Source of the DNA: an uncultured Actinomycetes bacterium
Lineage (GTDB): Bacteria; Actinomycetota; Actinomycetes; S36-B12; CAIYMF01
Assembly (NCBI GenBank): GCA_963843975.1
Contig: CAWJMG010000001.1
Coordinates: 180,001-212,000, forward strand
DNA length: 32,000 nucleotides
Reading direction: 5' to 3'
Part shown: positions 2,066-17,354 of the stretch, in pieces
Numbering within the stretch: the first letter of the stretch is position 1
Layout of the letters: each line of letters opens with the position of its first letter
Program-made: the position numbers and the translations under genes
Notes under the pieces: generated by a model
Told to the model about the DNA's origin: nothing
Database searches by the model: none
The model's input: the letters and a program-made list of their open reading frames with translations, nothing else

Positions 2066-3328
2066 TCAGCAGAGCTCGGCGGGCCAGGCCTTGTAGCCGG
2101 TCTCGGTGGGCCACGTGCTGATCAGCAGGTAGGGGATGCCGTCGACCGAGCCGATCCAGTACTGGTCGGGTGCTCCCGCGTAGCCGATGGGCACGTGCTC
2201 CGAGGACACGTACGCGCCGGTGGCCGCGCGGTCGAAGCTGCGCAGCACCTCGGCGGCAGCCTCGTTGCGCGTCCGCCCTTCGCCTTCGTGACCACCGGCG
2301 AAGTCGGCCAGGCCGCTGTAGTGGCAGCTGTACTCGGACAGCTCACCCGGCCACCAGAAGCCCCGGGGGTCGACGACCGTCACGGTGGCGGCGGGTCCGC
2401 GCGCTGCATCGTCGGCGGGCACGTAGCACGACAGCGTGAGCGGGCCCGGAGGGAACTGGCGCGTCCAGGTGGTCGGTGCCGCCGGCAGGGTGTCGCCGCC
2501 GCTGGTGCCGCCGAACGGGCTCGACGTCGCCTGGTACGCCAGATAGGCGCCCTTCGGCAGGGTGCTGGAGACACGCAGGAGCACACCGGAGCGCTGCGCG
2601 GCGACGGTGTCGCCGGACACCGTGATCCCCTCCGCCGAGCACGTCACCTCGAGCACAGCCTCCGCACCGGTCGGTGCCGTCACCGGCGTCGTGGTCGGCG
2701 CGGGCTCGGGTGCCGCCGACCGCTGCAGGACGACGAGAGGCGACCCGCGGTCGTTCATGAGCGTGAGCGAGTCGGCGCCGCCGCTGAGCGTTGCCGAGGT
2801 CGTGGTGACGAGGGCGCCCATGAGCTGGTCGTACGGGCAGAACTCGTAGGTGATAGGGCCCGTGCGTCGGGCTTCGAACGCCCCGGAGGAACGGACGATG
2901 AACTCGCCGGACCGGGGCAGGCAGGAGCCGGTCACCCCCCACACCGATCGTCCGTCGACCAGGCTGAACGTCACCGTCCGTGCCGGCGGCTGCGTACCGG
3001 TCGAGGGCACCGGCCAGGTGTCGTCCACGACGGCCCAGGTACCGAGGACCTGGTCGACCGAGGTCACCAGCTGCGGCGACGGTGGTGCGACGGAGACCGA
3101 GTCCGTCGGGTCCGCCGGAAGCACGTGCGTCCCGGTGACACGCGGGAAGAGGCCGAGGCCGAGGGCACTGACGAGGGCGAGGACTCCGACGACCGACCCC
3201 ACGGTCGCGGCGACGCGGATGCGATGGCGGCGGCGTCCGCCGCGCAGGACGGCGTCGAGGTCGATGCGGTCGACGCCGGGGGTTGCGACGGCGACGGCGA
3301 ACCTCTCGTGCAGGTCGGTGTCGTTCAC
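2066..3328 (-). CDS. Single-pass membrane protein coupled to the ECF sigma factor; ectodomain with a META-like (HslJ-type) segment
   Basis: 420-aa ORF with a GTG start at 3328 that overlaps the sigma stop codon (GTGA). GGAGGAGG lies 4 nt upstream. It has a short cytoplasmic N-terminus, then a TM segment (VAATVGSVVGVLALVSALGLGLF). The segment LGTWAVVDD...TVTFSLVDGRSVWGVTGSCLPRSGEFIV...TYEFCPYDQLMGALV...SLTLMNDRGSPLVV follows the META-domain pattern as I remember it. The C-terminal half is Cys-containing and of unknown function. Confidence 0.7.
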   Translation of the reverse strand: MNDTDLHERFAVAVATPGVDRIDLDAVLRGGRRRHRIRVAATVGSVVGVLALVSALGLGLFPRVTGTHVLPADPTDSVSVAPPSPQLVTSVDQVLGTWAVVDDTWPVPSTGTQPPARTVTFSLVDGRSVWGVTGSCLPRSGEFIVRSSGAFEARRTGPITYEFCPYDQLMGALVTTTSATLSGGADSLTLMNDRGSPLVVLQRSAAPEPAPTTTPVTAPTGAEAVLEVTCSAEGITVSGDTVAAQRSGVLLRVSSTLPKGAYLAYQATSSPFGGTSGGDTLPAAPTTWTRQFPPGPLTLSCYVPADDAARGPAATVTVVDPRGFWWPGELSEYSCHYSGLADFAGGHEGEGRTRNEAAAEVLRSFDRAATGAYVSSEHVPIGYAGAPDQYWIGSVDGIPYLLISTWPTETGYKAWPAELC

Positions 3329-3846
3329 AGCGCCTCCTCCGGCGTGGTGACGTGGTCGGTATCTGGCTCGAGCGCCGCGCGCAGGGCGTCGAGGCCGCGA
3401 CTGGCCTGGGAGCGGACGTTGCTGGCGGACGTGCCGAGGATCTGGGCCGTCTGCTCGATGGACAGGTCCTCCCAGTAGCGCAGCACCAGCACCGCGCGCT
3501 GCCCCTTCGGCACCTGGTGAAGCGCGGTCATGAGCTGGTCGCGGTCGCCGTCAGCTGGATGGGCCTGACCGTCGGCGACGTCGGGCAGGTCGGCCTCCGG
3601 CCGCTCCCGGCGCGAGGGCCGACGCCGGTGGTCGAGGTAGAGGTTCACGAGGATCTTGCGGGCGTACGGCGCGGGATCGCCCGCGGCCGAGACGCGCGGC
3701 CAGACGCCGTACAGGCGGGTGAGCGCGTCCTGGACGAGGTCGTCGGCGAGGTACCAGTCGCCCGACAGCAGGTACGCCGTCGTCCGCAGGCCGTCGCGGC
3801 TCGTCGCCACCCAGCCCACGAAGTCCGCCTCCGCACCCTGCCTCAC
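3325..3846 (-). CDS. ECF (sigma-70 family, group 4) RNA polymerase sigma factor
   Basis: 173 aa. Region 2-like segment DLVQDALTRLY...YARKILVNLYLDHRRR and region 4 HTH QRAVLVLRYWEDLSIEQTAQILGTSASNVRSQASRGLDALR. GTG start at 3846 with GGAGGA 7 nt upstream. Confidence 0.9.
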   Translation of the reverse strand: MRQGAEADFVGWVATSRDGLRTTAYLLSGDWYLADDLVQDALTRLYGVWPRVSAAGDPAPYARKILVNLYLDHRRRPSRRERPEADLPDVADGQAHPADGDRDQLMTALHQVPKGQRAVLVLRYWEDLSIEQTAQILGTSASNVRSQASRGLDALRAALEPDTDHVTTPEEAL

Positions 3847-4093: not shown

Positions 4094-4927
4094 ATGACCT
4101 CGGCTCGTCGCTGGACCCTTGCTGCCGCCGCTCTGTCGTGCGCCACCATGCTGACCTCCTGCGGGAGCTCGGCACCGGAAGGCCCGAAGCTCGTGTGGTC
4201 GGACGAGTTCGCCGGCGCGGCCGGTGCGGCACCGGACGCGACGAGCTGGAAGCCCGTCTCCGGCGGCGACGGCTGGGGCAACGGCGAGCTCCAGTGCTAC
4301 ACGGACTCGCGTGAGAACAGCATCGTCGACGGCAAGGGCTACCTCGTCATCTCGGCCCGACCGACGCCTGGCCACGCCTGCGCCGACGGGAAGTACAACG
4401 ACTTCACCTCGGCCCGCCTCATCACCCAGGGCCTGCGCAGCTTCCAGTACGGCACGTTCGAGATGCGCGCCAAGGTGCCCACCGGCGTCGGCGCCTGGCC
4501 GGCGTTCTGGGCGCTCGGGCAGGACCACGAGACGGCGGGCTGGCCTGCCTCGGGCGAGATCGACGTGACCGAGGTGCTCGGCCGCGAGCCGACCATCACC
4601 CACGGCTCGGTGCACGGGCCGAAGGCCGACGGATCGCCGTTCACCCTCACCGGCCAGCGGGTACTGCCCGCCGACCTCGGCACCGGCTTCCACGTCTACT
4701 CGACGACGTGGACCCGCGACGGCATCTCCTTCGCCATCGACGGCGAGGAGTACCAGCGCGTCACGCGTGCCGAGGTGGAGGCGCAGGGCCGATGGGTGTT
4801 CGACCAGCCGTTCTACCTGCTGCTCAACGTCGCCGTCGGCGGCCGGTGGCCCGGGCCGCCCTCAGCGAGCACCACCTGGCCGCAGCAGATGGTCGTCGAC
4901 TACGTGCGGGTGTACGCCGACCGCTGA
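4094..4927 (+). CDS. GH16-family beta-glucanase (laminarinase-like), predicted lipoprotein
   Basis: Inside ORF 3947..4927. ATG at 4094 is preceded by GGGAGA. Signal peptide with lipobox MTSARRWTLAAAALSCATMLTSC. GH16 catalytic motif E-x-D-x-x-E is seen as GEIDVTE. Flanking GH16 blocks are present: WPAFWALG, LLLNVAVGG, VDYVRVY. Confidence 0.9.
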   Translation: MTSARRWTLAAAALSCATMLTSCGSSAPEGPKLVWSDEFAGAAGAAPDATSWKPVSGGDGWGNGELQCYTDSRENSIVDGKGYLVISARPTPGHACADGKYNDFTSARLITQGLRSFQYGTFEMRAKVPTGVGAWPAFWALGQDHETAGWPASGEIDVTEVLGREPTITHGSVHGPKADGSPFTLTGQRVLPADLGTGFHVYSTTWTRDGISFAIDGEEYQRVTRAEVEAQGRWVFDQPFYLLLNVAVGGRWPGPPSASTTWPQQMVVDYVRVYADR

Positions 4928-6520
4928 GGTCTCCAGCACGCGCTCGCCGAGATTGCGCAGGTCGACGACCGTCTCGGCCGCGGTGCGGCCCGTGCGGGTC
5001 GCCAGGACGACGCCGACGAACGTCACCATGACCGCAGCGTTCACCGCGGCCCAGAACAGCATGGGCAGCGAGAGCCGGTCGGTCACCACAGAAGACGCCA
5101 GGCACGCGACGGCGACGACGCCGATGACCATGTGCGGCAGGATCATCGCGATCGGCGTGCGGTCGCGCTGACCCTCGCCCTTCGGCGTCACCTTGAAGAC
5201 CAGGCGCTTCTGCCGCAGCACTCCGATCGTCGCGAGCAGGTAGACCGGTGCCGTCACGACCGCCATGAAGCGGCCCGCCAGATGCAGGCCGCGGTCCCTG
5301 GACGGGTCGGGGTTGAACCGCTGGAGCCACGACGCGACGAGCTGACGCGCCACGACCAGCGGCATGACCCACAGCAGCATCTCCACGAGACCTACGTCGG
5401 CGGGCGTGATGCCGGTGGCGAAGTACAGGACCAGGAGCACGAGCCCGACCGCCGTGGCGATGCCCGAGAAGTAGTGCTGCTGGAGCGACACGTAGAGCGC
5501 AGCCTGCCGCCGGCTCATCTCCTTCACGAGCGCAGGCGTGTGCCAGCGCAGGATGTCCATGCAGCCGAAGGCCCAGCGCGTCTGCTGGTTGAAGTACGCC
5601 TGCCACGTCTCCGGTCCCTCGCCGATCGCGAGCGGCACGGGCACGTAGCGACTGCGCCATCCGGCCGCGTGCATGCGCATGCCTGTGAGCAGGTCCTCGG
5701 TGAGGTGGCCGGCGTACAGGCCGACCTCGCGCAGGGCGGCGACGCGGACCACGTGGTTCGCGCCGATCATGTTGGAGTGCCCGCGCGAGGCGAGCCCGCG
5801 CAGCAGGGGGCCGTAGAAGGCGTACTGCTGCTGGGATGCACCCCGGGCGACGAACGACTGGTCGCCGTTGCCGTAGACCTGCGGGGTGCCCACGAAGCCG
5901 ACCGTCGGGTCGTCGAAGTGACCGAGGGTCCGCGTCAGGAAGTCGCGCGACGGCACGAAGTCGGTGTCGATCTGCGCCACGACGTCGTACTCGTCGCCGA
6001 AGGCGTCGTACCACGCGTTGTGGTTGCCGCCCTTGGTGCGTGCCGTGAACGGGCCGGCCACGAGGTTGTAGCGCCGCACGCCGGCGCGGCTGAAGTAGCG
6101 GACGCCGAGCTCCTCGCACAGCAGCCGGACCTCGTCCACGCCGCCCTCGTCGAGCACCCACGTGTCGTGCGCGTAGTCGGCCGCCTGCATCGCAGGCAGC
6201 GTCACGCGCAGGAGGTCGAGCGGCTCGGACGACGGCACGAAGGTCGTGATGAAGGCGACGCGGAGCCCGGCGGCGGGTGCCGGCGGCTCCTCCTCCACCT
6301 TCATGCCCCACGCCACGACCCAGGTGAACGCGTCCATGAAGAGCCGGTGCCCGAACACCAGGGTCAGGAGCACGAAGAGGCCCACGTCGACCACGTGCCA
6401 CCAGCCCTGGAAGCTGGCGCCGACGTGCTCGGGCCGGAACCACCAGCCGAAGAAGACGACGAGGGAAGCGACCGCCAGCGCGAGCAGCGCGGAGTACTGG
6501 ATGCGTTCGCTGCGGGTCAT
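4862..6520 (-). CDS. Processive family-2 glycosyltransferase, cellulose/curdlan-synthase-like (GT2-A)
   Basis: Inside ORF 4862..6670. ATG at 6520 (MTRSERIQYSALL...) with GGAG upstream, and its start overlaps the stop of the upstream acyltransferase (ATGA). Motifs seen: VLDEGG, TKGGNHN, QIDTDF (DxD), LTEDLLTG (TED), QQTRW (QxxRW), FKVTPKG. Multiple TM segments flank the catalytic domain. 552 aa. I saw no PilZ-like motif. Confidence 0.9.
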   Translation of the reverse strand: MTRSERIQYSALLALAVASLVVFFGWWFRPEHVGASFQGWWHVVDVGLFVLLTLVFGHRLFMDAFTWVVAWGMKVEEEPPAPAAGLRVAFITTFVPSSEPLDLLRVTLPAMQAADYAHDTWVLDEGGVDEVRLLCEELGVRYFSRAGVRRYNLVAGPFTARTKGGNHNAWYDAFGDEYDVVAQIDTDFVPSRDFLTRTLGHFDDPTVGFVGTPQVYGNGDQSFVARGASQQQYAFYGPLLRGLASRGHSNMIGANHVVRVAALREVGLYAGHLTEDLLTGMRMHAAGWRSRYVPVPLAIGEGPETWQAYFNQQTRWAFGCMDILRWHTPALVKEMSRRQAALYVSLQQHYFSGIATAVGLVLLVLYFATGITPADVGLVEMLLWVMPLVVARQLVASWLQRFNPDPSRDRGLHLAGRFMAVVTAPVYLLATIGVLRQKRLVFKVTPKGEGQRDRTPIAMILPHMVIGVVAVACLASSVVTDRLSLPMLFWAAVNAAVMVTFVGVVLATRTGRTAAETVVDLRNLGERVLETSAVGVHPHVVDDHLLRPGGAR

Positions 6521-8619
6521 CCGGAGGTCTCCTGTCGTGCGGCCGCCCGGAGGGTCGGGGCGAGCATGGGCGCGAGCGTGGTCGAGAACGTGTTCGAGAG
6601 GTGGCTGTCGTCGCGGTAGACGAGCTCGTTGCCGACGATGACGGGGCAGGCCTCCGGCGAGCACAGCCACGAGAGCGGCTCGATCATGGGGAAGCCTGCG
6701 GCCTTCGCCGCACGTCCCACCTGCCGGTGCCGATCCGTGTAGAGCGCGGAGCCGTGATACGCGTCAGCCCTCGAGACCTGGCAGGCACGGACGTCTGCGA
6801 GGTTGGCCGCGACGCAGGTCGGCACGTCACCGCTCGGGTACGGCGTGTCCCGGATCAGCTCGACGCGGCTGCCCGCCTGCCTCAGCTTCTCGAGCGTGAC
6901 GACCGTCTGCTCGGCCCACGTCTCGTTCGAGACGAGACGGCCGGGGACGGAGTCGCTCTGGCTGACGAGGACGAGGTCGGGCTTCAGGGCGGCGATGCGC
7001 TCGAGAGTCTGCTCCCGCCACGTCGTGCATTCGGTGTAGTCGCGCTTGAGGGTGGGATTGACCAGCGTGACGTCGGCGACCGGGCACGCGGCCTTGGTCA
7101 GCGACACGACCTTCCAGTGCTGGGCCTTCGCCTCGGTGTCGAGGGCGCCCATCCACTGCTGCGCGTGCGAGTCGCCGAAGAGCACCACGGTGCGTGCGCC
7201 TGCTGGGTCGCCGTACTCGCACGCTCCCTGATCGATCTGCAGGAAGCCGAGATGGCAGCCCGACTCGGTGATGGCGACGTCGCGGCGCGCCGACTGCAGC
7301 TCCGGAGTCAGGTTGCCGGGGACGGCCGGGTTGTCGGCCGCGACGACGAGTGCCTCGGCCAGAGCGGCGGGGCGGCTCGAGGTCAGGGTCAGCGGAGCCG
7401 CCGGTGCGCCGTTGCCGGCGACGGCGGGTGCAGTGAGCAGCACAGCTCCGGCAGCGATCGCGGAGGCACCTGACAGCAGCGCGCCGCGGCGCAGCCACGG
7501 CCCTGTGCGCAGCGAGGTGCGCAGGGCGGGTCGCTCGACGGCGACGTAGGTGAGACCCGCGAACCAGAGGGCGATCACGCACATCTCGAGGTTCCGGATC
7601 CACGAGAGCTCGAGGCCCAGCACCGCCGGTGCGAGCAGGAGAACCGGCCAGTGCCAGAGGTACCAGCCGTAGGACACCCGCCCGATCCACTGCACCGGGC
7701 GATGGTCGAGGACCAGGTCGGCACTCCGGCGCGGCGCGCCCCCGCAGCCGCCCGCGATGACGAGCACGGTGCCGAGCACCGGCGCGAGCGCAGCGATGCC
7801 CGGGAAGGGCGTGGCGTCGTCGTAGCGCAGCGCGCTGCCGATCACGAGAGCGAGACCGACCCACGTGGCGGGTGCGCGCAGCCAGGCGGGCACAGTCGAG
7901 AGCCGGGTGATCGCGAGGGCGACGAGCGCCCCGATCCCGAACTCCCAGGCGCGCGTGAGTGCGGAGAAGTACGCCGTCGGCGCGGACGACGCGGTCAGCG
8001 ACACCGACAGCAGCAGGCTGCCCACCACCACGAGCACCACCAGCGCCGCCGTCAGCCAGCGGCCGGTCCGCCGGGCCACGGCGACGCCGGCCAGCACGAG
8101 CAGCGGCCAGGCGAGGTAGAACTGCTCCTCGACGGCCAACGACCAGAAGTGCTGCAGCGGCGACGCCGTCTCGCTCGCCGCGAGGTAGTCGACGCCCTGG
8201 TTCGCCAGGTGCACGTTGACGGCGTACCCGGAGGTCCAGATGGCGTCCCAGGCTGTCGCGCGCAGCGCGAGCGCCGGGCCCCAGAAGCGTGCGACCACCA
8301 GCGTCACCACGACCACGACGACCGCTGCGGGCAGCAGCCGTCGGATGCGCCGGGCGTAGAAGGCACCGAGCGCGAGCCGACCGGTGCTCGAGATCTCGCG
8401 CACGATGTGGCCGGTGATGAGGAAGCCGCTGATCACGAAGAAGACGTCGACGCCGACGTAGCCGCCCGTGATGCCCGGCACGCCCGCGTGGTAGAGCACG
8501 ACGAGCAGCACGGCGACGGCGCGCAGTCCCTGGATGTCGGCGCGGAAGCGCCTTGTGCCCTCGACGACGTCGAGGTCGTTGGCGGAGGTCGCTGTCGACG
8601 AGGCGATCGTGGCCGTCAT
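6517..8619 (-). CDS. Acyltransferase-3 (OafA/OatA-type) membrane O-acyltransferase fused to a C-terminal SGNH domain
   Basis: 700 aa. AT3 signature RADIQGLRAVAVLLVVLYH ... VDVFFVISGFLI, with about 10 TM segments. The C-terminal SGNH block I is VVLFGDSHAQQW and block V is DDSH. ATGA overlaps occur at both ends (8616-8619 and 6517-6520). Confidence 0.9.
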   Translation of the reverse strand: MTATIASSTATSANDLDVVEGTRRFRADIQGLRAVAVLLVVLYHAGVPGITGGYVGVDVFFVISGFLITGHIVREISSTGRLALGAFYARRIRRLLPAAVVVVVVTLVVARFWGPALALRATAWDAIWTSGYAVNVHLANQGVDYLAASETASPLQHFWSLAVEEQFYLAWPLLVLAGVAVARRTGRWLTAALVVLVVVGSLLLSVSLTASSAPTAYFSALTRAWEFGIGALVALAITRLSTVPAWLRAPATWVGLALVIGSALRYDDATPFPGIAALAPVLGTVLVIAGGCGGAPRRSADLVLDHRPVQWIGRVSYGWYLWHWPVLLLAPAVLGLELSWIRNLEMCVIALWFAGLTYVAVERPALRTSLRTGPWLRRGALLSGASAIAAGAVLLTAPAVAGNGAPAAPLTLTSSRPAALAEALVVAADNPAVPGNLTPELQSARRDVAITESGCHLGFLQIDQGACEYGDPAGARTVVLFGDSHAQQWMGALDTEAKAQHWKVVSLTKAACPVADVTLVNPTLKRDYTECTTWREQTLERIAALKPDLVLVSQSDSVPGRLVSNETWAEQTVVTLEKLRQAGSRVELIRDTPYPSGDVPTCVAANLADVRACQVSRADAYHGSALYTDRHRQVGRAAKAAGFPMIEPLSWLCSPEACPVIVGNELVYRDDSHLSNTFSTTLAPMLAPTLRAAARQETSG

Positions 8620-10295
8620 GCCGGCGCTCCGACCCGGTCGCGCAGGTCGACGTCCACCCGGTCCGGGTAGGAGTCACCGGCCGGCCCGAGGGTGAGGAGC
8701 ACGGGTCCGAGCAGCGCGACCTGGACGAGTGCGAGCGCGATGCCGGGCCACACCAGCCACGGGTTCCCACCGCTCAGGAAGAGCCGGACCAGACCTGCCC
8801 ACAGCAGCGCCTGGGACACGACCAGCCAGGTGCGGGCGACGAGCGCGACCCGCTGCGGGATCCCGGCCTTCTTGGGGCCGGCCGCAGCACCAGTAGGCAC
8901 CCAGCTCGCCACCTGGTTCCGCATCGCGTCGGTCACGGCGAGCAGGTGGCAGAAGCTGTTGATCATCGTCACGCGGTAGATGCCCGGGTCCCAGCCACGC
9001 GCGACGAGCGGGAAGATGAACAGCGTCGAGATGATGGACGGGATCATGAGCAGGTAGTTCGAGGGCACGATCGTGTCGGCGAAGAACCACACCATGATCA
9101 ACGTGGGCAGCACCGAGATGAGCGGCATGGCCGCTGATCCCATGTAGTACAGGAACGCCGCCCAGAACGACGTGCGCTGCCGCTTGTCGAACGGCGCCTT
9201 CTGGAAGAACGCGCTCATCATGAGGAGCATCGAGCTGCGGCACCAGCGGTACTGCTGATTCGTGAGCGCGTTCCAGCTGTCGGGTGCGAGCCCCTTGGCA
9301 AGCACGATCGGGACGTAGCGGGTGCGGTAGTTCGCGACCCAGAGCTTGACGCCCGAGTGGACGTCCTCGCCGATCGGCACCTGGGCGAACCCGCCGGCGG
9401 CCGTCACTGCCTGCCGCCGGTAGACGACGTTCGTGCCGGCGCAGATGGCGGCCTCGCAGGTGTCGCGGGCGGGCTGGATCCAGCGGAAGAACAGCTCCTG
9501 CAGGGCTCCGGCGTAGCGGGCGAAGTACGTGACGCGCCGGTCCACGTCGAAGTACTGCGCCGTCTGCACCACGCCCGTGGCCGGATCGGCCATGTACGGC
9601 ACCGTCTCCCAGAGGAAGTCCGGCCGCGGGGCGAAGTCGGCGTCGAACACGGCGATGAAGTCGCCGTCGGTGCGGTTGAAGGCGGCGATGAGGTTGCCGG
9701 CCTTCTTCCACTCGCCGCGGTTGGCGCGCACGACGTAGTCGAAGCCGAACTCCTCCGCGAGCCGCTGCGTCGGCTGGTCCGCGGCGTCGTCCAGGACATG
9801 GATGCGGACCTCGCCGTCCCACTCGAGGGCCCGGACGTGCTCGAAGGTGTTGGCGAGGACGACAGGGTGCTCGCCGCACACGGGCAGGAAGACGTCGATG
9901 CTGGGAGCGTCGCCGTCGAGGGCGGCGCGCCAGGTCTCGACGCCGACGACGTGGGCCTCGAGGGTGAGCCTGCGCCGCTTGAGGCGGAGCCACAGGTTCA
10001 CCACCATCGGCGGCACCATCACCGTCAGCAGGATGAGCCCGAGCGCCGTGTCCGGCGTGTGCAGCATGACGAGGATGAACGCGTAGACGAGGCACGCCTG
10101 CGAGAAGAAGAGCCACACGAACGGCCAACGGCGCTGCACGCCGAAGTAGCTGTACTTCTCCTGGTCGCTCGGCGCCGACGGCAGGTGGAACGTGGGGGCG
10201 ATAGCCGCCTCGTCCATCGGGACGGGTGCCGGTGCGTCGCGTGCGATGTGCCTCCTGGTGGTCCCGGCGCGGACATCGGTGTCGAACGTGGTCAT
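8616..10295 (-). CDS. Processive family-2 glycosyltransferase, cellulose-synthase-like (GT2-B)
   Basis: Inside ORF 8616..10478. I prefer ATG at 10295 (MTTFDTD...) because GAGGA lies 5 nt upstream; ATG at 10301 is also possible. Motifs seen: VLDDAAD, KKAGNL, FDADF (DxD), GEDVHSG (G/TED), QQYRW (QxxRW). Its stop overlaps the AT3 start (ATGA). Confidence 0.85.
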   Translation of the reverse strand: MTTFDTDVRAGTTRRHIARDAPAPVPMDEAAIAPTFHLPSAPSDQEKYSYFGVQRRWPFVWLFFSQACLVYAFILVMLHTPDTALGLILLTVMVPPMVVNLWLRLKRRRLTLEAHVVGVETWRAALDGDAPSIDVFLPVCGEHPVVLANTFEHVRALEWDGEVRIHVLDDAADQPTQRLAEEFGFDYVVRANRGEWKKAGNLIAAFNRTDGDFIAVFDADFAPRPDFLWETVPYMADPATGVVQTAQYFDVDRRVTYFARYAGALQELFFRWIQPARDTCEAAICAGTNVVYRRQAVTAAGGFAQVPIGEDVHSGVKLWVANYRTRYVPIVLAKGLAPDSWNALTNQQYRWCRSSMLLMMSAFFQKAPFDKRQRTSFWAAFLYYMGSAAMPLISVLPTLIMVWFFADTIVPSNYLLMIPSIISTLFIFPLVARGWDPGIYRVTMINSFCHLLAVTDAMRNQVASWVPTGAAAGPKKAGIPQRVALVARTWLVVSQALLWAGLVRLFLSGGNPWLVWPGIALALVQVALLGPVLLTLGPAGDSYPDRVDVDLRDRVGAPA

Positions 10296-10643
10296 GCGCA
10301 TCCTCGTGGGTCGTGGTGGCTGGCCAGGGCACGCGCGCACGTGCAGCGCGGCGTACGGCGGCATGGCGAGGCCCACCAGCACGCGCCGACGGCCGGTCGG
10401 AGGCGCACGGTGAAAGAGCCTGGTGTGCGGTGAGGTCGGGCGACTCGATGGTCGCGTCGAGGCGATGGCCGTCTGCAATGACGACCCGGACTCGGTCAGC
10501 CCCTGGGCGGGACCGTTCCCCCGACCGAGGCGGACGGGGATCGGCCGGGACCCTCACCCCGGCCGTCGTGCTGACTTCTCGAGACTACGTGTCCCGCTCA
10601 CGGGCAGCGCAAACCTGCCGTCCGGCTTACGGTCGGCCGTTGT

Positions 10644-10666
10644 GACGTGACCGACAGGGTCACGTC
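10644..10666 (-). terminator. Perfect 9-bp inverted repeat (GACGTGACC-N5-GGTCACGTC), 7 nt after the CocE/NonD stop codon; either a hairpin terminator or an operator
   Basis: Read directly: gacgtgacc gacag ggtcacgtc. No U-tract follows on the minus-strand RNA, so it may instead be a protein-binding palindrome upstream of the GT2 operon. Confidence 0.35.
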
Positions 10667-10673
10667 GACGGCG

Positions 10674-12638
10674 TCAGGCGAGGTCGCGGGGGAACTGGCG
10701 CTCCCAGCGTCTCTCGGCCACCACGCGGTCGCCCTCGCTGCACGTCATCGCGATGCGCACGTCGTACGTCCGCTCGCCGGCGTGCACCTCGAGCACCGAG
10801 CGCGTCGTCACGGTGACGGGGTTGCCGCTGCCGTCGTCGGCGAACGACAGGCGGAAGCTCACGTCGGACGCCGCGGTCTGCTCGAACGTCCGCGACGACA
10901 CCGACACTCGGCCGCCGTAGTGCTCGACCACCGCGCCATAGGGCGCGTCGTACGCCGAGCCGTGGTCGATCACGCACGTCGTGCGCCGCGCGAGCACGTC
11001 GCGCTCGACCCGCCACACCACGCCGTGGTCCGACTCGCTCGAGACGTCGTCGCCGGGCGAGAACGCAGGCGGCGGAGGCGATCCCGCCGGGTCGTACGCC
11101 GGCAGCACCAGCGTGCCGCCGTGCACGGTGAGCATCACCGGCAGCGGCGGCGCGGCCGTGTTGGGCCAGTCCGCACCGGCGAACGCGAGCCGTAGCACGT
11201 GACCAGGCAGCCAGCGGTAGGCCGCCGCCTCGATCTCGACCTCCACGTCGTACGCCGTCCCCGGCACGAGCGGCTCGACCGCCGCCATGCCGCCGCGGCG
11301 CGTCAGGTTGAGCACGCCGCGCGACACGAGAACCGACGTGCCGTCGGGTGAGACGTCCTGCAGCTTCACCGACACCGTCGCCACCGGCTGGTCGGACGAT
11401 ACCGACAGCACCACGCGCGCGTTGCCCGCGATCTCGAGCGGGCCGTCGGTGCCGAGGGCCGACGGGTCGACGTCCCACGTGAGCGAGTCGGCGTCGTCGT
11501 GCCGCTGGTCGAGCGACTGCCCGTACGGCAGGTGCCCGGCGCACGAGATCCAGGCCGCAGTGCCGACGTCGGGCTTCACCGCGTACGCCGCCCGCGCGTC
11601 GAGCGGCACCTCGAGCACCGACGAGCGCGGCGACGGCCACGAGTCGGCCCGCCACTCCCCCGCCACGACGTCGAGGTCGGGCTCGGGCGCGGTGAACTCG
11701 CGGACGTACCAGACCGCCTCGGGCTGGGCGTCGATCCCGTTGTCGACGCCGCGCAGCCAGCGGTCCCACCACGTCACCATCTCGGGCACGAGGTCGATGC
11801 GCGGCCCGGGCAGCGCCGACGACGTGGCCGCGTGCGACCACGGCCCCGCGAGAAGCCGTCGCGGGACGCCGTTCTCGCCGAGGCGCTCCATCGTGCGGAA
11901 CGTGTTGTTGCGGTAGCCGTCGGCCCAGCCCGCGACGATCATCGTCGGGATCTCGATCCGGTCGTACGCCGGACGCACCGAGCCGTGCCGCCAGTACGCG
12001 TTGTCGCGCTGGTTCTCGAACCACGTCATGATCCAGGGCTCGTGCTCGGCGATCCTCGCCTTCCACTCCTCGCGCCACGTCGCCCCGAACACCGCGGGCA
12101 CCGGCGGCAGCGCGTTCATCGGCGTCATGTAGTGGCAGTAGTCGACGAGGTCGATCCACCGTCGCAGGCCGCCCATGTAGTGCACGTCGTCGGTGTGCCG
12201 GTCGTCGGTGGCGTAGATCGCGATGACGGCCTTGAGATGCGCGGGCCGCTCGCACGCCATCTGCAGCGAGTTGAACCCGCTGTACGACGTGCCGTACATG
12301 CCGACGTTGCCGTCGCACCACTCCTGGGCTGCGAGCCAGGCGATCACCTCGGCCAGGTCGAGCTGCTCGGCTGCCGGGTACTCGTCCGTCGCACGCCCGC
12401 CGCTGCTGCCCGTGCCGCGCACGTCGAGACGCGCGACGGCGTACGCGTGCTCGTCCCGCAGCCGCACATACTCCGGCCGGTACGACGACGTCATGTCGTC
12501 CTTGCGGTAGGGCAGCGCCTCGAGGATGCAGGGCTGCGGCCCGTGCGCGGCGTTGGGGACGTACAGCGTCACGGACAGGAACACGCCGTCGCGCATGGGG
12601 ATCCAGGCGTCGACCTTGGTGCCCTCGAGGGCGTTCAT
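10674..12638 (-). CDS. CocE/NonD-family hydrolase (S15 X-Pro dipeptidyl-peptidase-like alpha/beta hydrolase)
   Basis: Inside the merged ORF 10674..13460. ATG at 12638 (MNALEGTKVDAWIPMRDGVFLSVTLYVP...). Family hallmarks: ILEALPYRKDD, RLDVRGTGSSGG, nucleophile elbow GTSYSG, later GPWSH. 654 aa. Its start overlaps the stop of the upstream gene (ATGA). Confidence 0.9.
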   Translation of the reverse strand: MNALEGTKVDAWIPMRDGVFLSVTLYVPNAAHGPQPCILEALPYRKDDMTSSYRPEYVRLRDEHAYAVARLDVRGTGSSGGRATDEYPAAEQLDLAEVIAWLAAQEWCDGNVGMYGTSYSGFNSLQMACERPAHLKAVIAIYATDDRHTDDVHYMGGLRRWIDLVDYCHYMTPMNALPPVPAVFGATWREEWKARIAEHEPWIMTWFENQRDNAYWRHGSVRPAYDRIEIPTMIVAGWADGYRNNTFRTMERLGENGVPRRLLAGPWSHAATSSALPGPRIDLVPEMVTWWDRWLRGVDNGIDAQPEAVWYVREFTAPEPDLDVVAGEWRADSWPSPRSSVLEVPLDARAAYAVKPDVGTAAWISCAGHLPYGQSLDQRHDDADSLTWDVDPSALGTDGPLEIAGNARVVLSVSSDQPVATVSVKLQDVSPDGTSVLVSRGVLNLTRRGGMAAVEPLVPGTAYDVEVEIEAAAYRWLPGHVLRLAFAGADWPNTAAPPLPVMLTVHGGTLVLPAYDPAGSPPPPAFSPGDDVSSESDHGVVWRVERDVLARRTTCVIDHGSAYDAPYGAVVEHYGGRVSVSSRTFEQTAASDVSFRLSFADDGSGNPVTVTTRSVLEVHAGERTYDVRIAMTCSEGDRVVAERRWERQFPRDLA

Positions 12639-13723
12639 GCGCGCGGCCCCGCGTAGTGGCGGTCGAGCAGCTCGGCCACCGCGTCGCGCGGCAGCGCCGG
12701 GATCGTCTTGCCGCCGACGCCGGTCACGTCGTGCGCGTTGAGCAGGCAGCTGATGACCGCCTCCTCCGACGCGTCGACGACCGCCTCGAAGTACGGGTCG
12801 AGCTCGCGGCCGGTGAGCGGTGCCTTCGCCGACGCCGTGCCGCGGGGTGCCCGCAGCCCGGTGGCCGCGGCCATGAAGATCTCGCCGCTCCCGTGGTGCG
12901 CGGTCGACCCGGTGCGCGCGAGGCCGAGGCCGATGCGGGTCGCGAGCCGCTCGCACCCGCGGTGGTCGATCGGTGCGTCGGTGACGACGACGCCGAGGCA
13001 CGAGCCCGCGGGCGGCGGCGGCACGTGGTCGGGGCGGCCGAGCAGCTGCCCGACCGGCACGCCGGCGATCGTGAGCCGGTCCCACTGGCCGAAGTTGCAC
13101 AGCAGCACGACGCCGACAACGTGGCCGTCGGGGAGCACGCGCGACGACGTGCCGATGCCGCCCTTCCACTGGTAGCAGGACATCCCGGTGCCAGCGCCGA
13201 CCGCGCCCTGGTCGGGCGTCGCGCCCGACCCGACGGAGGCCCGAGCCGCGGCGAGCGCCTCGCGCACGTGCTCGTGCGTCACGTGCATGTACCTCGCGTC
13301 GTTGAGCCACGAGTCGTCGCACTCGCCCACCACGGGGATCAGGAAGTCGTCGACGCCGATCCGCGGCTGCTCCTCGATGAGCAGGCGGCAGGCGGAGTCG
13401 TACACGCGCCCGACCTGCATCGTGGAGGTGAGGAACACCGGCGTCTCGGCCACACCCCACTCGTCCATCTGCGAGCGCGAGGTCAGCTCGCCGGCGCCGT
13501 TGAGCAGCGCGACGCCCGCCGGCACCGGCTCGAGGAACGGGTCGCCGCCGAGGTCGACGACCGTCACGCCCGTCCGCGCGAGCCCACGGCCCTCCGGCGG
13601 GTTGGGCTCGTCGTACACCACCGTCGCGTGGCCGAGACCCGCCCCCGGGACGTCGATCACCGAGTTCGTCGCGCCGCGCGGCAGCGTCCCGATCCTGACT
13701 CCGAGGTCAGCAAGCGTCGTCAT
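12635..13723 (-). CDS. P1/DmpA-family (S58) aminopeptidase-like Ntn hydrolase
   Basis: Inside ORF 12635..13993. ATG at 13723 (MTTLADLGVRIGTLPRGATNSVIDVPG...). DmpA-like blocks: NAITDVPG-like N-terminus, GAGTGMSCYQWKGGIGTSS, GVVVTDAP, ARTGSTAHHGSGE. 362 aa. Confidence 0.85.
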   Translation of the reverse strand: MTTLADLGVRIGTLPRGATNSVIDVPGAGLGHATVVYDEPNPPEGRGLARTGVTVVDLGGDPFLEPVPAGVALLNGAGELTSRSQMDEWGVAETPVFLTSTMQVGRVYDSACRLLIEEQPRIGVDDFLIPVVGECDDSWLNDARYMHVTHEHVREALAAARASVGSGATPDQGAVGAGTGMSCYQWKGGIGTSSRVLPDGHVVGVVLLCNFGQWDRLTIAGVPVGQLLGRPDHVPPPPAGSCLGVVVTDAPIDHRGCERLATRIGLGLARTGSTAHHGSGEIFMAAATGLRAPRGTASAKAPLTGRELDPYFEAVVDASEEAVISCLLNAHDVTGVGGKTIPALPRDAVAELLDRHYAGPRA

Positions 13724-13760
13724 GCGCCGATCCTGCCCGACCCCCGGCCCCGGCGCTGGC

Positions 13761-14834
13761 ATGCTCGCCCACATGAGCGCTCTCGTCGTGCGATCGGCCG
13801 ACTGCCTGCTGCACGTGCCGTCGGCGGAGATCTGGGTCGGCGTGCGCACGCCGGGCACCGAGCTGCCCGAACGGGCCACCCGGATCGAGGCCGAGCTGCG
13901 CGCGCGCGGGCACGAGGTGCGTGACGCCGAGGCGCACGACGACGACGTGCTGATACGCGTCCACGACCCGCGCCTCGTCGAGCACCTGCGCACCGTCTAC
14001 GACCGCTGGGTGGAGGCCGGCTTCCCCGACGAGCCGGGCCAGGACCGGGTGGTCCCGTACCTGATGCCGACGGCGGGGATGCTCGACGGCCTCCCCGAGC
14101 GCGAGCCCGCGGCGGTGCACGCCGCCGCCGGCCGCTGGTGCTACGACACGATGACGCTCGTCGGCCCAGGCACGTGGACTGCGGCCCGCGCTGCCGTCGA
14201 CGTCACCCTCACCGCGGTCGACGCCGTCGCCGCGGGAGCACCGCTCGCCTACGCCCTCGTGCGCCCGCCCGGCCACCACGTCACGCGGTCGGCGTACGGC
14301 GGCTCCTGCTATCTCAACAATGCGGGCATCGCGGCGCAGGCCCTGCGCGACGCGGGGCACGAGCGCGTAGCGGTGGTCGATCTCGACGCTCACCACGGCA
14401 ACGGCACGCAGGCTCTCTTCTACGACCGTGCCGACGTGCTCTACGCGTCGCTTCACGTCGACCCGGGGGCTGGCTGGTTCCCGCACTACGCCGGGTTCGC
14501 CGACGAGACCGGCCGCGGCCGGGGCGCCGACGCGAACCTCAACGTCCCGCTCGCACCCGGCACCGGCGACGCCGCCTGGCTCGACGCGGTCGGACGCCTC
14601 GCGGAGAAGGTCGAGGCGTCAGGAGCGACGGCGCTCGTCGTCAGCCTCGGCGTCGACTCGGCTGCAGCCGACCCCGAGTCGCCGCTGGACGTCAGCGTCG
14701 AGGTGCACCATGCCGCGGGCCGACGGCTCGCCGCGCTCGGGCTGCCGGTCGTCGCGGTGCAGGAGGGCGGCTACGACCTCGGCACGATCGGTCTGCTGGT
14801 CGCCGAGACCCTGGCGGGCCTCGACGGGCGCTGA
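13761..14834 (+). CDS. Histone-deacetylase-family Zn-dependent deacetylase/amidohydrolase (AcuC/APAH-like)
   Basis: Inside ORF 13188..14834; the upstream part is antisense to the DmpA gene. Start is ATG 13761 or ATG 13773. Motifs seen: VRPPGHH, DLDAHHGNGTQ, SLGVD, QEGGY. Confidence 0.9.
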   Translation: MLAHMSALVVRSADCLLHVPSAEIWVGVRTPGTELPERATRIEAELRARGHEVRDAEAHDDDVLIRVHDPRLVEHLRTVYDRWVEAGFPDEPGQDRVVPYLMPTAGMLDGLPEREPAAVHAAAGRWCYDTMTLVGPGTWTAARAAVDVTLTAVDAVAAGAPLAYALVRPPGHHVTRSAYGGSCYLNNAGIAAQALRDAGHERVAVVDLDAHHGNGTQALFYDRADVLYASLHVDPGAGWFPHYAGFADETGRGRGADANLNVPLAPGTGDAAWLDAVGRLAEKVEASGATALVVSLGVDSAAADPESPLDVSVEVHHAAGRRLAALGLPVVAVQEGGYDLGTIGLLVAETLAGLDGR

Positions 14835-14859: not shown

Positions 14860-15474
14860 ATGACCGAGGGCCAGATCAGCGTCGACCCGCTGGGTGAGCC
14901 GGATCCGGAGCGCCCGGACATCTACATGCGCGTCACCCTCAAGAGCGGGCTGCACCTCGTGATCCGGCCGCTGAACCCCGAGGACCGCGCGGCCCTCGCC
15001 GACGGGTTCGTCGGTCTCTCCGACCGCAGCAAGTACCTGCGCTTCCTCACCGGCAAAGGCGTGCTGTCCTCGCGCGGCCTCGACAAGCTGGTCGACCAGG
15101 TCGACCAGCACGACCACGTCGCGCTCGCTCTCTGGTGGACGCGGCACACGCAGGCAGACGTGCTCCTCGGCGACGCCCGCTTCATCCGCCTCCCGGCCGA
15201 CCCGGAGTGCGCCGACGTCGCCGTCACCATCGCCGACGACATCCAGGGCGAGGGCGCCGGCACCCTCATGATGCTCGCGCTCGCGCGGCGCGCCCACGAC
15301 GAGGGCATCCGCCGATTCTCCGCCGTCATCTCGCCCGAGAACGAGGCGTCCCACCGCATGATGCTGGCAGCCGGCACGGTGATCCGGGACGAGTACTCCG
15401 ACGGACTCCGCGAGGTCGAGGTCGAGCTCGGCGAGCCGGTGCAGATCCCCGACGGCGTACCGCCCCGCTACTAG
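14860..15474 (+). CDS. GNAT-family N-acetyltransferase, Pat-type (protein-lysine acetyltransferase-like) domain
   Basis: Inside ORF 14428..15474; ATG at 14860. IRPLNPEDRAALADGFVGLSDRSKYLRFL resembles the S-x-x-S-R-Y-L-R-F-F block of Pat-like GNATs. Acetyl-CoA loop-like DIQGEGAGTLM. The last 8 codons lie in the left direct repeat of the insertion. Confidence 0.85.
   Translation: MTEGQISVDPLGEPDPERPDIYMRVTLKSGLHLVIRPLNPEDRAALADGFVGLSDRSKYLRFLTGKGVLSSRGLDKLVDQVDQHDHVALALWWTRHTQADVLLGDARFIRLPADPECADVAVTIADDIQGEGAGTLMMLALARRAHDEGIRRFSAVISPENEASHRMMLAAGTVIRDEYSDGLREVEVELGEPVQIPDGVPPRY
15448..15472. repeat. Left copy of the 25-bp direct repeat (cccgacggcgtaccgccccgctact)
   Basis: Read directly; 23/25 identical to 17392..17416. 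It encodes the GNAT C-terminus (P)DGVPPRY. Confidence 0.85.
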
Positions 15475-17354
15475 TCCCCCAAAGCCTTGCCGAGCGTCAC
15501 GCGAAGAGCATCAGCCCCACCAGGGGACACAGCCTCGACGATCCAATCCACGTGAAGTGATTTCGCGTCCAGCATGGAGTTCAACGCGACCAAGTCGTCC
15601 AGACGGAGTGGCTCATAGCACGACAACAGAGCTATCGCTTCGGCCCGAAACTCGTCTGAATCAGAGTCGTCGCGAAGCGTGCGCAGCGAATCTAGAGCGC
15701 CGCCATCTGGCCCAGACTCCTTCAAGGTGAGTGCCGCTTGCATCAGTCGATGTAGGTCACTCGGCGAGGTCTTGCTGATGCGGCTGAGGTGACGGCGCGC
15801 CCCATCAAGCTTCTGTTGCGCGATCAGCGAGGCGACAAGCGCTGCTCGAAGTGGCGGGTCATTCTGCTGACGCTTGAGCGCGCGCTGCGCGTAGTAGGCC
15901 GCCGCGTGAAACTCGGCAAGGTGACACTTTAGGAGAGCGACAAGCCGCAGCAGAGAATGCCGATGCGGATCAAGCAAGACGGCCCGCTCGGCGATAGCTC
16001 CGGCCGTCTGCAAGTCCCCGAGGTATTCTGCGTAGGCGTGTGCGGCCATTCGCAAGACTTCGACATCAGGTCCTTGCGAGCCAACGAGGTCATCGAGGGT
16101 GGCCCATCCGTCGGCCGCCGTCGGATCTGTCGACAGCCTCGATAGCGCTCTTCGCGCCGCCGCGATCTGGTTGGTCCCATCCACGCAGGCGATGTCATGC
16201 CAGCCAATCGCTTCCGCATGGCGGCCCATCGCGTCAAGAAAAGTGGCGTAGCCCGAGGCAGCGACGGAGGCTGCGAACGTGCCGGGTTCGTTCGCAGCAG
16301 TCGAATACAGACTCTCCGCCTCTTCGATCGAACCGTGCCCTCGGAGGAGGAGATCAGCCAACGTCACCTGAGCGTGTGCATTCTTCGGGTCAACCTCCAG
16401 CGCTCGACGAAGCACCTCAACCGCACCTACCTCGTCTTTGTCGGCGAGGAAGGCGCCGAAGTTTGCCAGCAGAGCACTGTCGTTCGGTCGAAGGCGAACC
16501 TGGGCTTTGTAATCCTTGACCGTCCCAGGCAGCGAACTGAAGCCGGAACCGATGAGCTGTGGCCTCTTCGGCCGCCCCTCTGCGTCCATGGCTGGCTTGA
16601 GCCGAATGCCCATTGCCTCAAGTTGGGCAAGGAAGTCCGGCGGCTGGTAGGCGGCGTCGTGTTCGCCTTCTAGGTAGGCCTTCGAGCTTCCGTGTCCGGT
16701 CGCGCGCACCGACCCGACGGAACAACCTCGGCTTACCGTCGGTGTCCGTTCGCTCACCGAGGCATTGACCTCGGCCAAGCGTTCGAACACTTCGTCGTCA
16801 GATGGTCCGGTTCTGAGCAAGCGCTGGAGGGACTCGATCTCTTCGGCCGTTAGGGCGTTCCGCGCGCCGGTAGCGACGAGTGTGCCTGACTTTGGCCTAA
16901 CGCTAGTGACAGTGAAGTGCGTGTCGGCGACGTCCCGCGCTACGACCCGGCCGTCCACAAACGACTCGAAGTTCGATACGAGCGAAACGACGATCTGCGT
17001 ACCGGCTACTGATCCGACGACGAAGGAATGCCGCCGCTGCACTGGGTCAGAAACGCGGGAAAGGGCAGCATCTGCTCGGGATTGCAGCAAACTCAGCAAC
17101 GCCCCCAACGACGTCACCGCGTTCGCCTCGACAACGACACCAGCCAGCCAATCGCCGATGGCTCGGCCGTCTAGAACCCCTAGACCCGTAACCCCAATCC
17201 GGGCGTGCACAGACAGGGTCTGGACGGTGGCGAGCTTGTACGCATCCTGCATTGGCGCACCAGAGCCGTATGCCGAGAGCCTGAAGTCGCAAGACATGAA
17301 CATCGAGTTCTCGTCGGCAAGGACCATCACCAGGGTCACGCCCACAGTCTCCAT
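15471..17354 (-). CDS. Fusion protein: N-terminal proteasome-beta/HslV-like (Ntn-hydrolase-fold) domain plus C-terminal TPR-repeat array; function unknown
   Basis: 627-aa ORF filling the insertion. The N-terminal ~230 aa align by eye to the Thr1/Asp17/Lys33 proteasome pattern (T7, D23, K40). Residues ~290-620 have TPR-like periodicity (e.g. ALLANFGAFLADKDEVGAVEVLRRALEVDPKNAHAQVTLADLLL). No Walker A motif. Alternative in-frame GTG starts occur at 17345 and 17339; the latter would give Met-Thr-Leu-Val. Confidence 0.8.
   Translation of the reverse strand: METVGVTLVMVLADENSMFMSCDFRLSAYGSGAPMQDAYKLATVQTLSVHARIGVTGLGVLDGRAIGDWLAGVVVEANAVTSLGALLSLLQSRADAALSRVSDPVQRRHSFVVGSVAGTQIVVSLVSNFESFVDGRVVARDVADTHFTVTSVRPKSGTLVATGARNALTAEEIESLQRLLRTGPSDDEVFERLAEVNASVSERTPTVSRGCSVGSVRATGHGSSKAYLEGEHDAAYQPPDFLAQLEAMGIRLKPAMDAEGRPKRPQLIGSGFSSLPGTVKDYKAQVRLRPNDSALLANFGAFLADKDEVGAVEVLRRALEVDPKNAHAQVTLADLLLRGHGSIEEAESLYSTAANEPGTFAASVAASGYATFLDAMGRHAEAIGWHDIACVDGTNQIAAARRALSRLSTDPTAADGWATLDDLVGSQGPDVEVLRMAAHAYAEYLGDLQTAGAIAERAVLLDPHRHSLLRLVALLKCHLAEFHAAAYYAQRALKRQQNDPPLRAALVASLIAQQKLDGARRHLSRISKTSPSDLHRLMQAALTLKESGPDGGALDSLRTLRDDSDSDEFRAEAIALLSCYEPLRLDDLVALNSMLDAKSLHVDWIVEAVSPGGADALRVTLGKALGD

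Follow-up and report, generated by a model that had tools for sequence, protein, structure and literature searches.

Synthase-dependent glucan secretion is understood mainly from systems built around a single synthase, namely BcsA/BcsB, CslA/GlxA, CrdS and BgsA. In the Streptomyces system, CslA and GlxA make cellulose from UDP-glucose in vitro, CslA is inactive without the membrane-anchored GlxA, and the hydrolase CslZ is a convergent GH6 lipoprotein (PMC11022532, PMC9040799). Partnerships between GT2 synthases and AT3 acyltransferases are also known, as in the cases of IcaC with IcaA and OpgC with OpgH (PMC9558356). Here, we describe a locus that combines features of these systems but contains two synthases. 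It lies in a 32,000-nucleotide stretch of DNA (the window) from an uncultured Actinomycetes bacterium (GenBank assembly GCA_963843975.1, contig CAWJMG010000001.1, positions 180,001 to 212,000), and consists of two divergent BcsA-like synthases (GT2-A and GT2-B), an AT3-SGNH acyltransferase encoded between them, and a convergent GH16 lipoprotein. The same two synthases are found fused into one protein in other bacteria, and they very probably work as a pair.

The source genome comprises 4.19 Mb in three contigs and is 93% complete; its nearest public relatives are metagenome-assembled genomes (MAGs) labelled Candidatus Nanopelagicales or uncultured Actinomycetota. The reading that we prefer, and to which we give slightly better than even chances, is that the coupled synthase pair runs a synthase-dependent beta-glucan module, the product of which would be trimmed by GH16 and, in this lineage, would receive O-acyl groups on the outer side of the membrane.

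A divergent pair of BcsA-like synthases

Both synthase genes are on the minus strand, GT2-B at positions 8616-10295 (559 amino acids from the ATG at 10295, with alternative starts up to 10478) and GT2-A at 4862-6520 (552 amino acids from the ATG at 6520), flanking the AT3-SGNH gene (6517-8619, minus strand, 700 amino acids). All three open reading frames show a strong coding bias in guanine-plus-cytosine (GC) content at third codon positions (GC3), within a high-GC window (about 71%). A preliminary description of this DNA had the three genes chained by ATGA overlaps at 8616-8619 and 6517-6520; the plus strand reads TCAT at both places, and thus both stop/start overlaps are real. The motifs that it quoted for GT2-B, GT2-A and AT3-SGNH were likewise all found in the translations. 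Its statement that no BcsZ-like partner is present did not hold, since it overlooked a convergent GH16 glucanase gene on the plus strand (4094-4927, 277 amino acids), which is conserved with GT2-A and overlaps the 3' end of that gene by 66 bp. This fourth gene belongs to the unit.

GT2 families score above the Pfam cut-off in both synthases. GT2-B carries the motifs LDDA168, KAGN198, DAD218, GED309 and QQYRW347, and GT2-A carries LDEG123, KGGN163, DTD185, TED274, QQTRW312 and FKVTPKG442. Both proteins had been credited with the full processive-synthase motif set, and the catalytic residues (D, DxD, (T/G)ED and QQxRW) are indeed invariant in both families, as judged from 42-sequence family alignments. 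The gating loop is different: the FxVTxK feature is present in GT2-A and absent from GT2-B, where WVPTG465 takes its place. Each form is a fixed property of its family. In clade A, residues V444, T445, K447 and G448 (GT2-A numbering) are invariant, and the lysine-free WVPTG of clade B is equally so.

The nearest NCBIfam models for both synthases are those of the cellulose synthase CelA/BcsA, yet both proteins score far below every NCBIfam equivalog cut-off (136-142 bits for the CelA models, against a cut-off of 699). Sequence matches to BcsA reach 1e-31 for GT2-A and 1e-28 for GT2-B. The preliminary description had named Foldseek as one check on the synthases, and by that check both fold like BcsA. 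The AlphaFold2 model of GT2-A (pLDDT 89.5, pTM 0.88) matches BcsA (4p00) with a TMq of 0.72, and the top matches of the GT2-B model (pLDDT 84.6) are BcsA and plant CesA, with TMq values of 0.57-0.60. Each model begins with two N-terminal helices, followed by the GT domain and several C-terminal helices of transmembrane length, and the match to BcsA/CesA extends over the GT domain and the transmembrane region. With these motifs and models, GT2-A and GT2-B look like active, membrane-integrated, processive synthases.

Neither synthase has a Pfam match to PilZ, and neither PilZ nor BcsB has a match anywhere in the source genome (93% complete), in agreement with what had been said of the locus at the outset. 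Control by cyclic di-GMP through a PilZ domain was considered and is ruled out by these results.

The identity between GT2-A and GT2-B is only 28%, and both a BLAST matrix and a phylogenetic tree split the synthases into two clades. Clade A includes GT2-A, a homologue from Modestobacter, and CslA. Clade B, which is monophyletic with a support of 1.0, includes GT2-B, a paralogue from the same genome, and a set of GH26-linked relatives. In a class-level genome sample, the full-length matches to GT2-A, at 32-43% identity, are CslA proteins of the Streptomyces type, encoded in loci with the order GT2, GlxA copper oxidase and convergent GH6. GT2-A scores 241-290 bits against the synthases of these GT2-GlxA-GH6 loci (32-39% identity), compared to 92 bits against GT2-B. 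In the tree, the split between the clades (support 0.977) places the CslA group with GT2-A, and GT2-A itself lies outside that group.

The strongest evidence that GT2-A and GT2-B would work together is a Rosetta-stone argument from gene fusions. In eight loci, A and B form a single open reading frame of 1,060-1,220 amino acids, with a GT2-A homologue as the N-terminal half and a clade-B synthase as the C-terminal half. A single uninterrupted frame was confirmed in two of these, by direct translation in L055 and from the list of open reading frames in L014 (a Candidatus Saccharibacteria MAG; 1,066 amino acids). The motifs of both active sites are intact: the A half carries TKGGNHN, DTDF, TEDL, QQMRW and YKVTPKG, the B half carries KKAGN, DADF, SEDV, QQYRW and W(Q/T)PTG, and Pfam detects two GT2 stretches in each fusion protein. 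Among the best 120 clusters at 90% identity, at least 37 are full-length fusions, and those with a label are assigned to Saccharibacteria, Saccharimonadales or Levyibacteriota; a library clustered at 50% identity contains at least three full-length fusion clusters. In Saccharibacteria and their relatives among the Patescibacteria, the fused polypeptide is about 1,060 amino acids long. Such a fusion would be topologically sound if both termini are cytoplasmic, as they are in BcsA. The distance matrices of A and B partners are also correlated (Mantel test, r = 0.77, with none of 2,000 permutations as high), a correlation to which common host ancestry contributes and which that ancestry alone would also produce.

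Two further observations concern the fused and extended synthases. L022 and L058 are mid-GC metagenome or MAG contigs, the former with a Saccharibacteria label. The B half of their fusions is 60% identical to GT2-B of the window, compared to about 40% for the others, a difference that suggests an exchange of genes between the Saccharibacteria and the phylum of their known hosts, the Actinomycetota. Separately, the protein P0292 and about 50 similar clusters (roughly 1,100 amino acids, with Patescibacteria labels) join a GT2-A-type synthase to a C-terminal extension of about 580 amino acids that has no Pfam match; this extension may represent another kind of partner domain built into the synthase.

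Conservation and spread of the module

The preliminary description treated the triad of operon genes as a unit and proposed a phylogenetic profile of it. The unit does recur: the complete order GT2-B, AT3-SGNH, GT2-A and convergent GH16 is found in eight other loci, at 54-77% identity. These come from an uncultured Actinomycetota MAG (L005), Galbitalea soli (L006, with an extra GH26), Aeromicrobium wangtongii (L007), and five more (L008, L010, L025, L045 and L047). Four partial copies limited by contig ends (L011, L042, L043 and L046) agree with the same order. The convergent GH16 follows GT2-A in every close relative. The flanking genes differ between loci, which argues that the four genes travel as a module. 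Two sets of neighbours in the window, an ECF (extracytoplasmic function) sigma factor and membrane protein pair (2066-3846) and an upstream S15 peptidase, were considered as parts of the system and rejected because none of L005, L006 and L007 shares these flanks. Elsewhere in the window, the GC content drops to 0.63-0.66 between 15000 and 18000, compared to about 0.71 in the rest, over a region that spans the gene for a 627-amino-acid tetratricopeptide repeat protein (15471-17354).

How widely is the module distributed? Three of the 27 congeners sampled have an orthologue of GT2-A. None was detected in the family beyond this genus (33 genomes), nor in an even sample of about 300 genomes from the class. 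The module is thus rare and patchy, a distribution on which vertical inheritance as a core function was rejected, and it is an accessory and probably mobile trait.

A scan of metagenomes with a GT2-A family profile yielded 80 more loci, whose neighbours were mapped with tblastn probes. Neighbours were counted for those 37 GT2-A-family loci whose contigs extend 3.5 kb or more in each direction, and the counts are tblastn best-hit labels on contigs of uneven length. A clade-B GT2 lies within 4.5 kb of GT2-A in 22 of the 37, and these 22 come from several phyla. GH16 is nearby in 18, and 15 loci have both partners. AT3-SGNH is found near GT2-A in only five, all of them members of the high-GC group that is nearest to the window; a PMT_2-family membrane glycosyltransferase is found in seven (in the order PMT_2, B, A, GH16) and GH26 in four. 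Gene order varies between lineages, being B-x-A in high-GC loci and A-B in mid-GC loci, which indicates that the association of A, B and GH16 has survived rearrangement. The conserved core is therefore GT2-A, GT2-B and GH16, and the acyltransferase is a lineage-specific accessory that is not part of it. One locus links the AT3 and PMT_2 layouts: in L012, from a nanopore-derived MAG, a frameshifted PMT_2-like membrane protein (6456-8000) sits between GT2-B and GT2-A in place of AT3-SGNH, with a UDP-glucose dehydrogenase gene upstream. Members of the family occur widely among uncultured Actinomycetota of soil and freshwater and among Patescibacteria, groups in which surface polymers are almost unstudied.

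The intergenic region upstream of GT2-B (10296-10673, minus strand) is about 380 nt long. It contains a promoter-like block of 18 nt at 10573-10590 on the minus strand, ACGTAGTCTCGAGAAGTC, with a TAGTCT hexamer resembling a -10 element and the sequence GGTTGCG 19 nt upstream of it. The block occurs once in the window, and when the upstream regions were aligned, L008 and L010 were seen to share it ahead of GT2-B. Its position would imply a 5' leader of roughly 280 nt. A scan of the upstream region for consensus sigma-70 promoters and terminators gave nothing useful, and no Rfam family rose above noise in the 380 nt. A riboswitch or other known RNA in the leader was accordingly rejected, the sole Rfam match scoring 18.8 bits against a gathering score of 64.

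Hydrolase, acyltransferase and product

The GH16 protein has a signal peptide with the lipobox LTSC23, the catalytic motif EIDVTE at residues 155-160, and a match to PF00722 at 78 bits. Its best matches among solved structures are endo-beta-1,3-glucanases (2hyk at 1.9e-70 and 3atg at 5.8e-69), compared to only about 1e-8 for GH16 entries of the lichenase type. It is thus predicted to be an endo-beta-1,3(4)-glucanase of the laminarinase type. Close orthologues keep both EIDVxE and N-termini with a lipobox-like arrangement of signal and cysteine.

The AT3-SGNH protein had been described as an OafA/OatA-type acyltransferase with an intact SGNH domain, and that assignment stands. Its N-terminal AT3 membrane domain (PF01757, Acyl_transf_3, 108.6 bits) contains RADIQGLR...VLYH44, and its C-terminal extracytoplasmic SGNH domain (PF19040, 121.3 bits) contains GDSH482 and DDSH670; both Pfam scores are above cut-off. 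The fused OafA/OatA-type architecture, the intact Ser-Asp-His triad and the conserved histidine of the first transmembrane helix are all present. No sequence match to any solved structure was found for it. The best NCBIfam model is that of mycobacterial SucT, at 288.3 bits against a cut-off of 1275; on these scores, the protein is a homologue of SucT and not an equivalog.

The SucT match raises the question of whether the acyltransferase has anything to do with the synthases. AT3-SGNH enzymes often modify peptidoglycan and other wall polymers (PMC9558356), and the protein could be a housekeeping wall acyltransferase, either a peptidoglycan O-acetyltransferase or a SucT-like arabinogalactan succinyltransferase, located between the synthases by accident. 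The absence of an acyltransferase from most GT2-A/GT2-B loci would fit this explanation. Nonetheless, we consider it very improbable. The score against SucT is less than would be expected of an equivalog by a wide measure (see above), the genome holds four AT3-SGNH paralogues of which two directly follow clade-B synthases, and the translationally coupled position between the synthases is kept in eight other complete loci (L005-L008, L010, L025, L045 and L047) at 49-67% identity. Moreover, the whole module is an accessory, found in three of the 27 congeners. The preliminary description had proposed an O-acylated beta-glucan as the product. An acyltransferase does accompany the synthases in this subgroup, but with AT3-SGNH in five of the 37 loci and PMT_2 in its stead in seven, the term 'O-acylated' fits the subgroup and not the system as a whole.

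How might the four proteins act together? In the reading that we prefer, the two PilZ-less synthases would each build a polymer from a UDP-sugar on the cytoplasmic side of the membrane, UDP-glucose being the most likely donor, and each would thread its own chain through its own transmembrane channel. GT2-A and GT2-B would be coupled in function and probably also physically, with the two channels held together. The AT3 domain would move an acyl group, perhaps acetyl or succinyl, across the membrane, and the SGNH domain would place it on the emerging glycan. Finally, membrane-tethered GH16 would trim, release or remodel the product, a role parallel to those of BcsZ for cellulose and of the GH6 lipoprotein CslZ for Streptomyces CslA. 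The output might be two co-secreted glucans that form a composite, or else a material with two linkages.

A beta-glucan product is suggested by the relationship to CslA and by the hydrolase partner. The GH16 partner argues for beta-1,3-glucosidic bonds in the GT2-A product, and the association of clade B with GH6, GH8 and GH26 at other loci speaks for a chain of the beta-1,4 type made by GT2-B. The GH6 association is seen at L030, that with GH26 at L032, L033 and L006, and GH8 occurs as fusions. Four metagenome proteins of 894-972 amino acids (P0301, P0314, P0318 and P0347) consist of a clade-B synthase with a BcsZ-type GH8 domain at the C-terminus, which hints at glycan products of the beta-1,4 type.

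L030 is a second locus in the source genome (G000:C3:632001-651500, approximately 7306-13790), located between uvrB and uvrA. It encodes GT2-B', which is 40% identical to GT2-B, together with AT3-SGNH', GH6 and UDP-glucose dehydrogenase. A one-helix micro-protein of roughly 55 amino acids is encoded between GT2-B' and AT3-SGNH' (approximately 9085-9251); it was not found in the window operon or in L005-L007, where GT2-B and AT3 abut or overlap. Two other clade-B synthase loci, L032 and L033, have no acyltransferase.

Several observations weigh against the reading of a coupled beta-glucan module. On the side of the synthases, and in addition to the phylogenetic explanation of the Mantel correlation, GT2-B is without the gating-loop lysine and may not be a canonical processive synthase, and its model fits BcsA less tightly than does that of GT2-A. 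Each half of the module also occurs alone: GT2-B with AT3-SGNH but without GT2-A in Motilibacter peucedani, GT2-B' with AT3-SGNH' but without GT2-A at the second locus, and GT2-A with GH16 but without GT2-B or AT3 in a Modestobacter. On the side of the product, clade A includes the cellulose-making CslA, so membership in the clade predicts no beta-1,3 linkage. UDP-glucose dehydrogenase genes lie beside clade-B synthases in several loci and hint at a product containing glucuronic acid, and the best plasmid relative of GT2-A is found in a non-glucan context, beside sugar epimerases and GH26 in Sinorhizobium. Hydrolase associations can mislead as well, since CslZ is reported to be promiscuous and to act also on peptidoglycan and chitin (PMC11022532).

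The solitary halves lead naturally to the idea that two independent systems share an operon. GT2-B and AT3-SGNH would make an O-acylated polymer of the beta-1,4 type, GT2-A and GH16 would make a separate beta-1,3-glucan, and the synthases would not interact. The occurrence of exactly these combinations in Motilibacter, at the second locus (with GH6 and UDP-glucose dehydrogenase) and in Modestobacter is in keeping with such an arrangement, as are the low identity of the two GT2s and the deep separation of their clades. We nevertheless judge it unlikely, if worth keeping in view. It does not sit well with the A::B fusions in at least 37 clusters, with the adjacency of A and B in 22 of 37 well-flanked loci across phyla in spite of altered gene order, or with the translational coupling of all three genes in the window. 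The cooperation of the two synthases, which the preliminary description had envisaged as either a heteromeric enzyme or a two-linkage polymer, is thus favoured by the fusions and the adjacency. Because each half occurs alone, the pair is not obligate.

The second group of observations raises a different alternative, namely that the product is not a plain beta-glucan. Another UDP-sugar would then be used, giving a polymer that contains glucuronic acid (as in pneumococcal type 3 capsule or hyaluronan), one that contains pentose, or one that is chitin-like, and GH16 would serve some other purpose. In its favour, UDP-glucose dehydrogenase is linked to clade B in L030, L012, L033 and L027, GH26 partners occur in both clades, and the NCBIfam scores of both synthases are low (see above). 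The plasmid relative mentioned above is encoded on pSymB of Sinorhizobium meliloti (L124; NZ_CP021823.1, 150321-161859), with 29.5% identity to GT2-A over 94% coverage; the surrounding unannotated stretch has two NAD-dependent sugar epimerase/dehydratase genes, a DUF995 gene and GH26. This stretch presumably resembles the arabinose-containing polysaccharide (aps) cluster. We regard this alternative as quite unlikely for the locus described here, considering that the window operon has no sugar-nucleotide-modifying gene, that the conserved partner is a laminarinase-type GH16 nearest to proven beta-1,3-glucanases, and that CslA, the nearest characterized relative, uses UDP-glucose (PMC11022532).

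A bolder proposal goes beyond the preferred reading of a coupled beta-glucan module. GT2-A and GT2-B might form an obligate two-channel hetero-synthase of a new class, whose subunits are coupled in translation in Actinobacteria and joined in one chain in Saccharibacteria. Its two different active sites would make a composite or two-linkage beta-glucan (beta-1,3 and beta-1,4) that neither synthase makes alone, with AT3-SGNH (by acylation) and PMT_2 (by glycosylation) as interchangeable decorators at the outer face and GH16 as a dedicated hydrolase. We offer this as a tentative and rather doubtful extension. If it is true, finding the system both in epibiotic Saccharibacteria and in the phylum of their actinobacterial hosts would suggest that the two have a surface polymer in common, one that matters for attachment.

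Comparison with known systems

A design in which two divergent synthases are conserved as a pair, and in places fused, would differ in principle from that of the single-synthase systems, and could make composite or mixed-linkage beta-glucans accessible by genetic means. For cryo-electron microscopy and in vitro synthesis, the fusions found in nature are ready targets. The exchange of AT3-SGNH for PMT_2 between loci suggests that Gram-positive bacteria have a modular way to decorate the nascent glycan outside the membrane, and acylated beta-1,3-glucans are of material and immunological interest. The preliminary description did not recognize the layout as that of a described system; no description of it, or of a paired or fused clade-A/clade-B synthase, was found in the literature searched, the coverage of which is incomplete, so that this absence is not proof.

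Several known systems share part of the design. In the acetylated cellulose systems of Pseudomonas fluorescens (WssFGHI) and Clostridioides (CcsA/B/Z/H/I), a BcsA-type synthase is combined with O-acylation of the glucan during export and with a cognate hydrolase. These systems have a single synthase and use an MBOAT (AlgI-like) protein with separate SGNH/AlgX-like proteins, in place of the AT3-SGNH fusion found here. Agrobacterium CrdS (crdASC) and Sinorhizobium BgsA are PilZ-less, BcsA-related GT2s that make beta-1,3 or beta-1,3;1,4 glucans. By description only, the present synthases are like them in being PilZ-less relatives of BcsA, and the GH16 partner suggests a similar chemistry; by the same measure, the partners are different (CrdA/CrdC and BgsB), and no second synthase, acyltransferase or linked GH16 is part of either system. 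GT2s from Cellulomonas are reported to be 35-39% identical to CrdS, which is a lead only (PMC3544764).

With respect to acylation, there are parallels in IcaA/IcaD-IcaC, in the O-succinylation of poly-N-acetylglucosamine, and OpgH-OpgC/MdoC, in the succinylation of periplasmic glucans, where a GT2 synthase is likewise combined with an AT3 acyltransferase and acylation takes place outside the cytoplasm (PMC9558356). IcaC and OpgC consist of AT3 only, however, whereas here AT3 is fused to an OafA/OatA-type SGNH domain. Their synthases also come from different GT2 subfamilies, and neither Ica nor Opg involves a second synthase or a GH16.

The proteobacterial BcsA-BcsB-BcsZ-BcsC system shares with this locus the GT-A core with D, DxD, TED and QxxRW, the FxVTxK loop (in GT2-A), the closest predicted fold (BcsA), and a dedicated endoglucanase encoded with the synthase. 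The differences are as follows: there is no PilZ, no BcsB match and no need for the outer-membrane protein BcsC, two synthases take the place of one, and the hydrolase is GH16 instead of GH8. Overall, the locus would work like Bcs and like CslA/GlxA/CslZ, yet is without the components by which these are recognized, PilZ and BcsB in one case and GlxA and GH6 in the other. No GlxA was detected in the window or the genome; for the genome this is a weak negative, as the model matched nothing in any control genome, although it did score 155.8 bits on a protein from L034.

The Streptomyces CslA-GlxA-CslZ system is also close. GT2-A is a full-length homologue of the synthases in GT2-GlxA-GH6 loci, both systems are Gram-positive and have neither BcsB nor BcsC, and in both a membrane-anchored extracytoplasmic protein is encoded beside the synthase and a convergent lipoprotein glycoside hydrolase follows the synthase operon. 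The host is different, since its relatives show no sign of filamentous tip growth, and so is the hydrolase, which is of the GH16 beta-1,3-glucanase type instead of GH6. Finally, where Streptomyces has CslA and GlxA, the present locus adds a second synthase from the other clade and an AT3-SGNH acyltransferase.

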